From Escherichia phage wV7: 64,000 nucleotides of DNA. The stretch lies in sequence record NC_019505.1; one strand, 5' to 3'. This document shows positions 39,576 through 40,031 of this stretch, piece after piece (position 1 is the first letter of the stretch; each line of letters begins with the position of its first letter). Made by a program: the position numbers and the translations under genes. Under the pieces are notes generated by a model. It was not told the origin of the DNA. It did not search any database and was given only the letters and a program-made list of their open reading frames with translations.

Positions 39576-40031
39576 TTATTTTAAATCGTCTGCCCAATCA
39601 AGCTTAAGAGGTTCTTTGTATTCACGATCTAATACGACCGGAATTTGTACATCACCGCTAAATGATAAGGGCCCAACATTATAAGACAATGTTATATGCG
39701 GTGTGTAATCGTCAAAATCATGTGTAGCACCTAGCGCCCGCGCATACATGTGTCGACAGCGCAGATATTCAGAATCTAGTACAAGTACAAGAGTAGATCC
39801 ATCTTGTGTTTTCCATACTTCTAAATGTCCAGAAGAAGCTACTTCAAAACTTCCGCTCGATGGAACATACGGAACATTTACTCTTGAATAACATATAGTC
39901 GAATGAATTTTTTCTCTAGGAACTGGATTAGGAACACGTAAAGAGCGCTGGAGTTCTTCCAGCGCATCAAGTGTTAATTCTGAAAACTTAGCTGCTACAT
40001 AAAGACCCGTTGAAAAGTCTTTAAATTCCAT
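39576..40031 (-). CDS. 57B: 2H phosphoesterase gp57B (Acb1-type anti-CBASS cyclic-nucleotide phosphodiesterase)
   Basis: 151 aa; two H-x-T/S motifs (HSTICYS and HITLSY); position and size match T4 57B. Confidence 0.8.

Follow-up and report, generated by a model that had tools for sequence, protein, structure and literature searches.

Several enzymes, among them the LigT 2'-5' RNA ligase, coronavirus NS2 and rotavirus VP3, carry two HxT/S motifs in a 2H fold, and the phage protein Acb1 is built in the same way. NS2 and VP3, both viral 2',5'-phosphodiesterases, resemble Acb1 further in that they destroy a host nucleotide second messenger. The targets differ, however: other 2H phosphoesterases act on RNA ends or on 2'-5' oligoadenylate, whereas Acb1 acts on the cyclic signals of CBASS. 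The Acb2 of Pseudomonas phage PaMx33 was reportedly described by Huiting et al. in 2023. It belongs to the same Pfam family as the Vs.4 protein of T4 and likewise forms a hexamer that soaks up dinucleotides in three pockets (Cao et al., PMC10312549), although it shares only about 24% identity with T4-type Acb2 (PMC10312549).

The closest described systems are those of T4 itself. T4 57B is Acb1, with the catalytic tetrad H44/T46/H113/T115, and H44A/H113A protein is inactive (Hobbs et al., 2022, PMC9117128). The same work identifies Y12, W74, F107 and W147 as stacking residues, E141 as specific for adenine, and a C-terminal lid, and reports that on CBASS hosts the titre of T4 deleted for acb1 falls by a factor of more than 300 (PMC9117128). 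An orthologue from Erwinia phage FBB1, which has another host range, is represented in the PDB by 7T26 (apo) and 7T27 (with 3'3'-cGAMP).

T4 Vs.4, or Acb2, uses Y8 and F82 for pi stacking and H11, K23 and R79 for hydrogen bonds and salt bridges (Jenson et al., 2023, PMC10097602). S74 lies near the ligand, T12 caps a helix, L29, F33, A66, A73 and A77 are at the hexamer interface, and each hexamer takes up 3 cGAMP with a Kd of about 30 nM (PMC10097602). For cyclic dinucleotides the Kd of T4 Acb2 is about 30-84 nM (PMC10097602, PMC10312549). T4-Acb2 binds cyclic dinucleotides, not cA3 or cAAG, and Y37, A57, L60, D61 and T64 are blamed for narrowing its second pocket (Cao et al., PMC10312549). As the signal sets of Acb1 and Acb2 overlap without being identical, T4-type phages are considered broadly CBASS-evasive (PMC10312549). 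The sponge also has a cost, in that T4 Acb2 soaks up 2',3'-c-di-AMP, the decoy of Panoptes (OptSE), and so unleashes the membrane toxin OptE (PMC12657218). The two genes, the way each works and the fact that T4 has both are all in the literature.

A T4-type phage and its relatives

The DNA analysed here, hereafter the window, is a stretch of 64,000 nucleotides from Escherichia phage wV7 (NC_019505.1). It comes almost certainly from a T4-type (Tequatrovirus) phage with both canonical T4 anti-CBASS genes, intact. When the 57B and vs.4 regions were searched by megablast against a phage collection, both were 100% identical over the full query to KP869105.1, Escherichia coli O157 typing phage 7, which is a Tequatrovirus (Straboviridae); position x of the window corresponds to position x + 50693 of that record. 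T4-like phages by the hundred matched at 95-99% in the same search. The two proteins are likewise common: of the 1,469 phage records in which tblastn found a homologue of Acb1, 497 reach an identity of at least 99%, as do 62 of the 1,230 with a homologue of Vs.4. Phages of Escherichia, Klebsiella and Shigella make up most of the records for either protein, and Acb1 homologues occur in phages of Acinetobacter, Vibrio and Aeromonas as well.

Aligned to T4 by blastn, the window is the usual T-even mosaic. T4 mobB, mobC, mobD, segB and the nrdD group I intron with its I-TevII were absent or replaced in the window in this comparison, and a number of segments specific to the window contain small ORFs with no assigned function (Table 1).

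Table 1. Positions in the window of the two anti-CBASS genes, of the sites discussed within and beside them, and of segments that differ from T4.
Feature	Position	Strand	Basis or remark
acb1 (gene 57B), predicted 2H-phosphoesterase, 151 aa, ATG start	39576..40031	-	ORF listing and homology
First catalytic HxT motif, H43-S44-T45 (T4 H44/T46)	39897..39905	-	motif scan; aligns with HTT of FBB1 Acb1
Second catalytic HxT motif, H112-I113-T114 (T4 H113/T115)	39690..39698	-	motif scan; aligned with 7T26
TAATG junction, TAA stop of 57A overlapping ATG of 57B by one base	40029..40033	-	window sequence
acb2 (vs.4), predicted cyclic-dinucleotide sponge, 88 aa	28608..28874	-	homology and synteny
Shine-Dalgarno-like GAGGAAG, 6 nt 5' of the vs.4 ATG, within the 3' end of vs.5	28881..28887	-	sequence
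Substitution-rich patch of vs.4, CDS nt 130-154	28721..28745	-	9 of 19 nt differences from T4 in 25 nt
Homing endonuclease or intron sites absent or replaced relative to T4	4116-4141, 8919-8939, 10215-10218, 21001-21964, 36826-37698		blastn against T4
Window-specific segments relative to T4	5692-5953, 7828-8153, 12202-12590, 21001-21964		small ORFs, no assigned function
Window-specific segments relative to T4 (continued)	22520-22966, 25874-26242, 34858-35408, 35959-36484		small ORFs, no assigned function
ORFs with an internal-protein-like leader	39241-39498, 30468-30941, 35965-36438	-

The vs.4 gene and its RB14-type allele

The initial annotation had placed a small ORF in the T4 vs.4 (Acb2) position while leaving the homology itself unverified. 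The placement was right, as vs.3 and vs.5 flank the ORF, and the order regB, vs.3, vs.4, vs.5, vs.6 is the same in the window, RB14 and T4. The homology can now be added to it. The product is identical to T4 Vs.4 (NP_049728.1) at 84 of 88 residues (95%) and equal to it in length, and its ligand-binding residues are intact. Supporting this, it matches PDB 7UQ2, entered as 'Vs.4', at 1.7e-53, Pfam PF24729 (the Acb2/Tad1 hairpin domain) at 8e-20 with 71.2 bits against a cut-off of 27, and PHROG 717, the family to which Jenson et al. assigned Vs.4 (PMC10097602), at 6e-32. The likeness to T4 Acb2 thus extends to slot, length and sequence; the difference is that the window carries an RB14-type allele, its Vs.4 being identical to that of RB14.

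The amino-acid differences between this allele and that of T4 all arise in a short patch near the middle of the gene. Nine of the 19 nucleotide differences lie inside 25 nt and give rise to L44F, N46S, C50D and F52L, and such clustering might be taken to mean that the allele is functionally altered, either an inactive sponge or one with a changed ligand range. It has in fact been proposed that pressure from Panoptes leads to Acb2 being lost or retuned in nature, and the T2 protein has been suggested to be inactive as a sponge (PMC12657218); position 50, moreover, varies (C, D, Y) even between close alleles. Against this, all the residues shown to contact cGAMP or to hold the hexamer together are unchanged, the full set retained being Y8, H11, T12, K23, L29, F33, L60, A66, A73, S74, A77, R79 and F82. 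The residues blamed for blocked cA3 binding in T4-Acb2, that is Y37, A57, L60, D61 and T64, are also those of T4, as is T68, so the window allele keeps the T4 residues at the second pocket in the comparison with PaMx33 Acb2. When the substitutions were checked against the known ligand and hexamer contacts and the cA3-occluding residues, none hit any of them. The changes can be set in context by aligning about 45 alleles taken from viral contigs of the T4-like kind: the two ends that build the dinucleotide pocket, residues 1-33 and 68-88, hardly vary at all, whereas residues 34-67 vary freely, with insertions and deletions, and all four substitutions fall within this tolerant segment. The identical allele is furthermore kept intact in RB9 and about 60 other records besides RB14. 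I therefore regard a functionally altered allele as very unlikely and read vs.4 of the window as encoding an Acb2 of the ordinary T4 kind.

A narrower proposal is that RB14-type Vs.4 binds a second ligand differently, or escapes recognition by a host factor. The residues that in other Acb2 proteins line the second, trinucleotide pocket (T4 Y37 to T68) sit in the hypervariable segment, which makes altered binding of a second ligand, or evasion, possible; I give this proposal as little credence as an altered allele, and nothing here points to a function in the variable middle of Vs.4. Were it nevertheless true, the variability of residues 34-67 would reflect an ongoing arms race and not relaxed constraint.

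The acb2 alleles also appear to move. Enterobacteria phage Ac3 (OK040907.1) has a 57B region with 98.4% nucleotide identity to the window, yet its Vs.4 homologue (62649-62927 of that record; about 93 aa) is only about 67% identical. With so close a backbone and so divergent a Vs.4, the acb2 allele has apparently been exchanged independently of the backbone that surrounds it.

Gene 57B and its catalytic residues

The suggestion of the initial annotation that 57B is Acb1 is confirmed by homology. The 151 residues of the product are all identical to residues 2-152 of T4 gp57B (NP_049750.1) in BLASTP, so that T4 residue numbers exceed those of the window by one, and the C-terminus, which contains the lid region, is no exception. 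At the nucleotide level 11 of 456 positions differ from T4, and every one of these differences is synonymous, a pattern that indicates purifying selection. The product matches the Pfam family Acb1 (PF23474) at 2.6e-60, with 202.7 bits against a cut-off of 27, along the whole profile (1-144 of 144). In a sequence search of the PDB it found FBB1 Acb1 (7T26/7T27) at E = 4e-62 and 68% identity with the HxT motifs aligned. The identity to this orthologue, which shares the family and fold, spans residues 8-148, and two of the stacking residues are conservatively replaced in FBB1 (window W73 by F, F106 by Y). The setting agrees as well: 57A and gene 1 (dNMP kinase) lie upstream, as in T4, an internal-protein gene lies downstream, and the same ORF is named 57B in relatives that use T4 nomenclature, such as RB51 and AR1.

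Both H-x-T/S motifs reported for the product in the initial annotation are present (H43-S-T45 and H112-I-T114), and a motif scan finds exactly these two. By themselves they say little. About 0.76 such motifs would be expected from composition, so the pair is not significant alone, and 4 of the 54 window ORFs of 100-250 aa have at least two. Because the pair is weak on its own, the Acb1 claim rests on homology, and it is in alignment that the motifs gain their meaning: the catalytic histidines H44 and H113 of T4 align with H43 and H112 of the window and are conserved. The remainder of the functional set is complete, with Y11, H43, T45, W73, F106, H112, T114, E140 and W146 all kept. In its HxT/HxT tetrad, stacking residues and lid, the window protein is thus like T4 Acb1.

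The two motifs bear on a different reading, in which 57B does not cleave cyclic nucleotides and acts instead on RNA, as a 2'-5' ligase or a repair enzyme of the LigT type. LigT, too, has a 2H fold with a pair of HxT motifs, and the name 'RNA ligase' is attached to 57B in RefSeq records and in PHROG 755. However, the best family for 57B is Pfam Acb1, and in a Pfam scan at E <= 0.01 it was the sole one, no LigT-type or other 2H family being reported. The residues that stack the substrate are in place, as is the adenine-reading E140. Furthermore, the identical T4 protein was purified by way of its cGAMP-cleaving activity, and once 57B is deleted from T4, infected cells no longer hydrolyse cGAMP and the phage becomes sensitive to CBASS (PMC9117128). 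With Acb1 as the only Pfam family and these experiments in conflict with it, 'RNA ligase' was rejected for 57B; the chance that it is correct seems to me close to nil, and I read the name as an outdated label carried over from the 2H/LigT superfamily.

Taken together with vs.4, the reading of 57B as Acb1 and of vs.4 as Acb2 is supported by sequence, and it is an ordinary one that was already known for phages of this type.

Gene starts, junctions and expression

In one respect, the 57B product differs from T4 Acb1, and this is at its start. The T4 junction between 57A and 57B reads ...GAATGATGG, with TGA as the stop of 57A and the first ATG as the start of a protein of 152 aa. That of the window reads ...GAATAATGG; the stop is TAA, the start is the second ATG, and the protein has 151 aa. 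Where T4 has ATG the window has ATA, and its product is without the extra N-terminal methionine.

The ORF first proposed for vs.4, 28608-28910, had the correct stop at 28608 but not the correct start, which is the ATG at 28874-28872. A product of 100 aa from the TTG at 28910 is scarcely credible, for all that the frame is open from there, since that TTG lacks a Shine-Dalgarno sequence whereas GAGGAAG stands 6 nt before the ATG, the 12 codons it would add run into the 3' end of vs.5, MIEDIKGY opens the protein in all annotations and in the crystallised construct, homologues all align from that methionine, and Y8, close to the N-terminus, is part of the ligand pocket. The longer ORF, a mechanical 'first TTG after a stop', was rejected in favour of the ATG at 28874. 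The 88-aa protein is annotated alike in RB14, T4 and KP869105.1, its first codon falls at residue 1 of the T4 construct that was crystallised (residues 1-88), and the 40-odd Vs.4 homologues of viral contigs all begin M(I/SI/AI)EDIKGY.

The upstream neighbour, vs.5 (28867-29088, minus strand), encodes 73 aa and overlaps the start of vs.4 by 8 nt (ATGATTGA). In T4, by contrast, vs.5 has 58 aa, and a gap of 36 nt lies between it and vs.4; the longer, overlapping vs.5 of the window suggests translational coupling in this lineage.

Expression of both genes would, by analogy with T4, be that of their T4 counterparts. Scans for sigma-70 promoters and terminators around the two genes gave sites no commoner than in shuffled sequence. 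The best-looking promoter site (39562-39534, minus strand; TTTACA-17-TATTAT with a TG) lies 3' of 57B, before the Ip5 gene.

Predicted action, gene labels and neighbouring genes

The activities of the window proteins are inferred from experiments on those of T4. On this footing, Acb1 would be a metal-independent 2H phosphoesterase that captures adenosine-containing cyclic di- and trinucleotides (3'3'-cGAMP, cUA, cAAA, cAAG), stacking them through Y11, W73, F106 and W146 while E140 reads the N6 of adenine. It would strain the adenosine, and H43, T45, H112 and T114 would catalyse, by acid-base chemistry, the attack of the 2'-OH on the 3'-5' bond. The cyclic signal is predicted to open by way of a 2',3'-cyclic phosphate to a linear 3'-phosphate that could not activate the CBASS effector. 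Acb2, for its part, would sequester the signal without destroying it: the helical hairpin of 88 aa is expected to assemble into a hexamer with three dimer-interface pockets, each taking one cyclic dinucleotide at nanomolar affinity, with Y8 and F82 stacking and H11, K23 and R79 supplying hydrogen bonds and salt bridges. Between them, the two proteins would hold the signal below the threshold of the CBASS effector, and the host would not commit suicide before progeny are made. As the dinucleotide pocket is intact, the Acb2 of the window should trigger Panoptes (OptSE) too.

These are T4 counter-defence genes, each known from over 1,200 records of sequenced phages, and their recognition here has little import beyond correct annotation. 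Its value lies in the labels: KP869105.1 has acb1 and acb2 as 'hypothetical protein', and 57B goes by 'RNA ligase' in RefSeq relatives, so that the functions established by experiment appear under neither name. In phage typing or therapy, intact acb1 and acb2 predict broad evasion of CBASS systems that signal by cGAMP, cUA or cAAA, and the same intact pair also predicts sensitivity to Panoptes (PMC12657218).

The place that ipI has in T4 differs in the window, where the gene downstream of 57B encodes an 85-aa Ip5-type protein (phrog_3499). It is one of three window ORFs that start with the leader MK(T/S)Y.(E/Q)F, as in T4 internal proteins. A second encodes a 157-aa 'internal virion protein' (phrog_3155, 1e-101) and adjoins denV, where T4 has ipII and ipIII; the third, also of 157 aa, belongs to phrog_2280 and has no assigned function. 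In the blastn comparison with T4, counterparts of ipI, ipII and ipIII were not found in the window, so the proteins that enter the host along with the DNA are not the same set as in T4, where IPI is an anti-restriction protein.

Labels around vs.4 are also confused in KP869105.1, where vs.1 (27256-27801), vs.3 (28330-28608), vs.7 (29458-29787) and vs.8 (29784-30374; all window coordinates) are each called 'endoribonuclease RegB'. This appears to be a transfer error from the true regB (27809-28270). Finally, the tk.4 orthologue upstream of vs (about 26700-26919, minus strand) bears a macro-domain (A1pp) label in KP869105.1 and in T4, and it is possible that an ADP-ribose-processing enzyme is encoded here, close to the gene for the anti-CBASS sponge.
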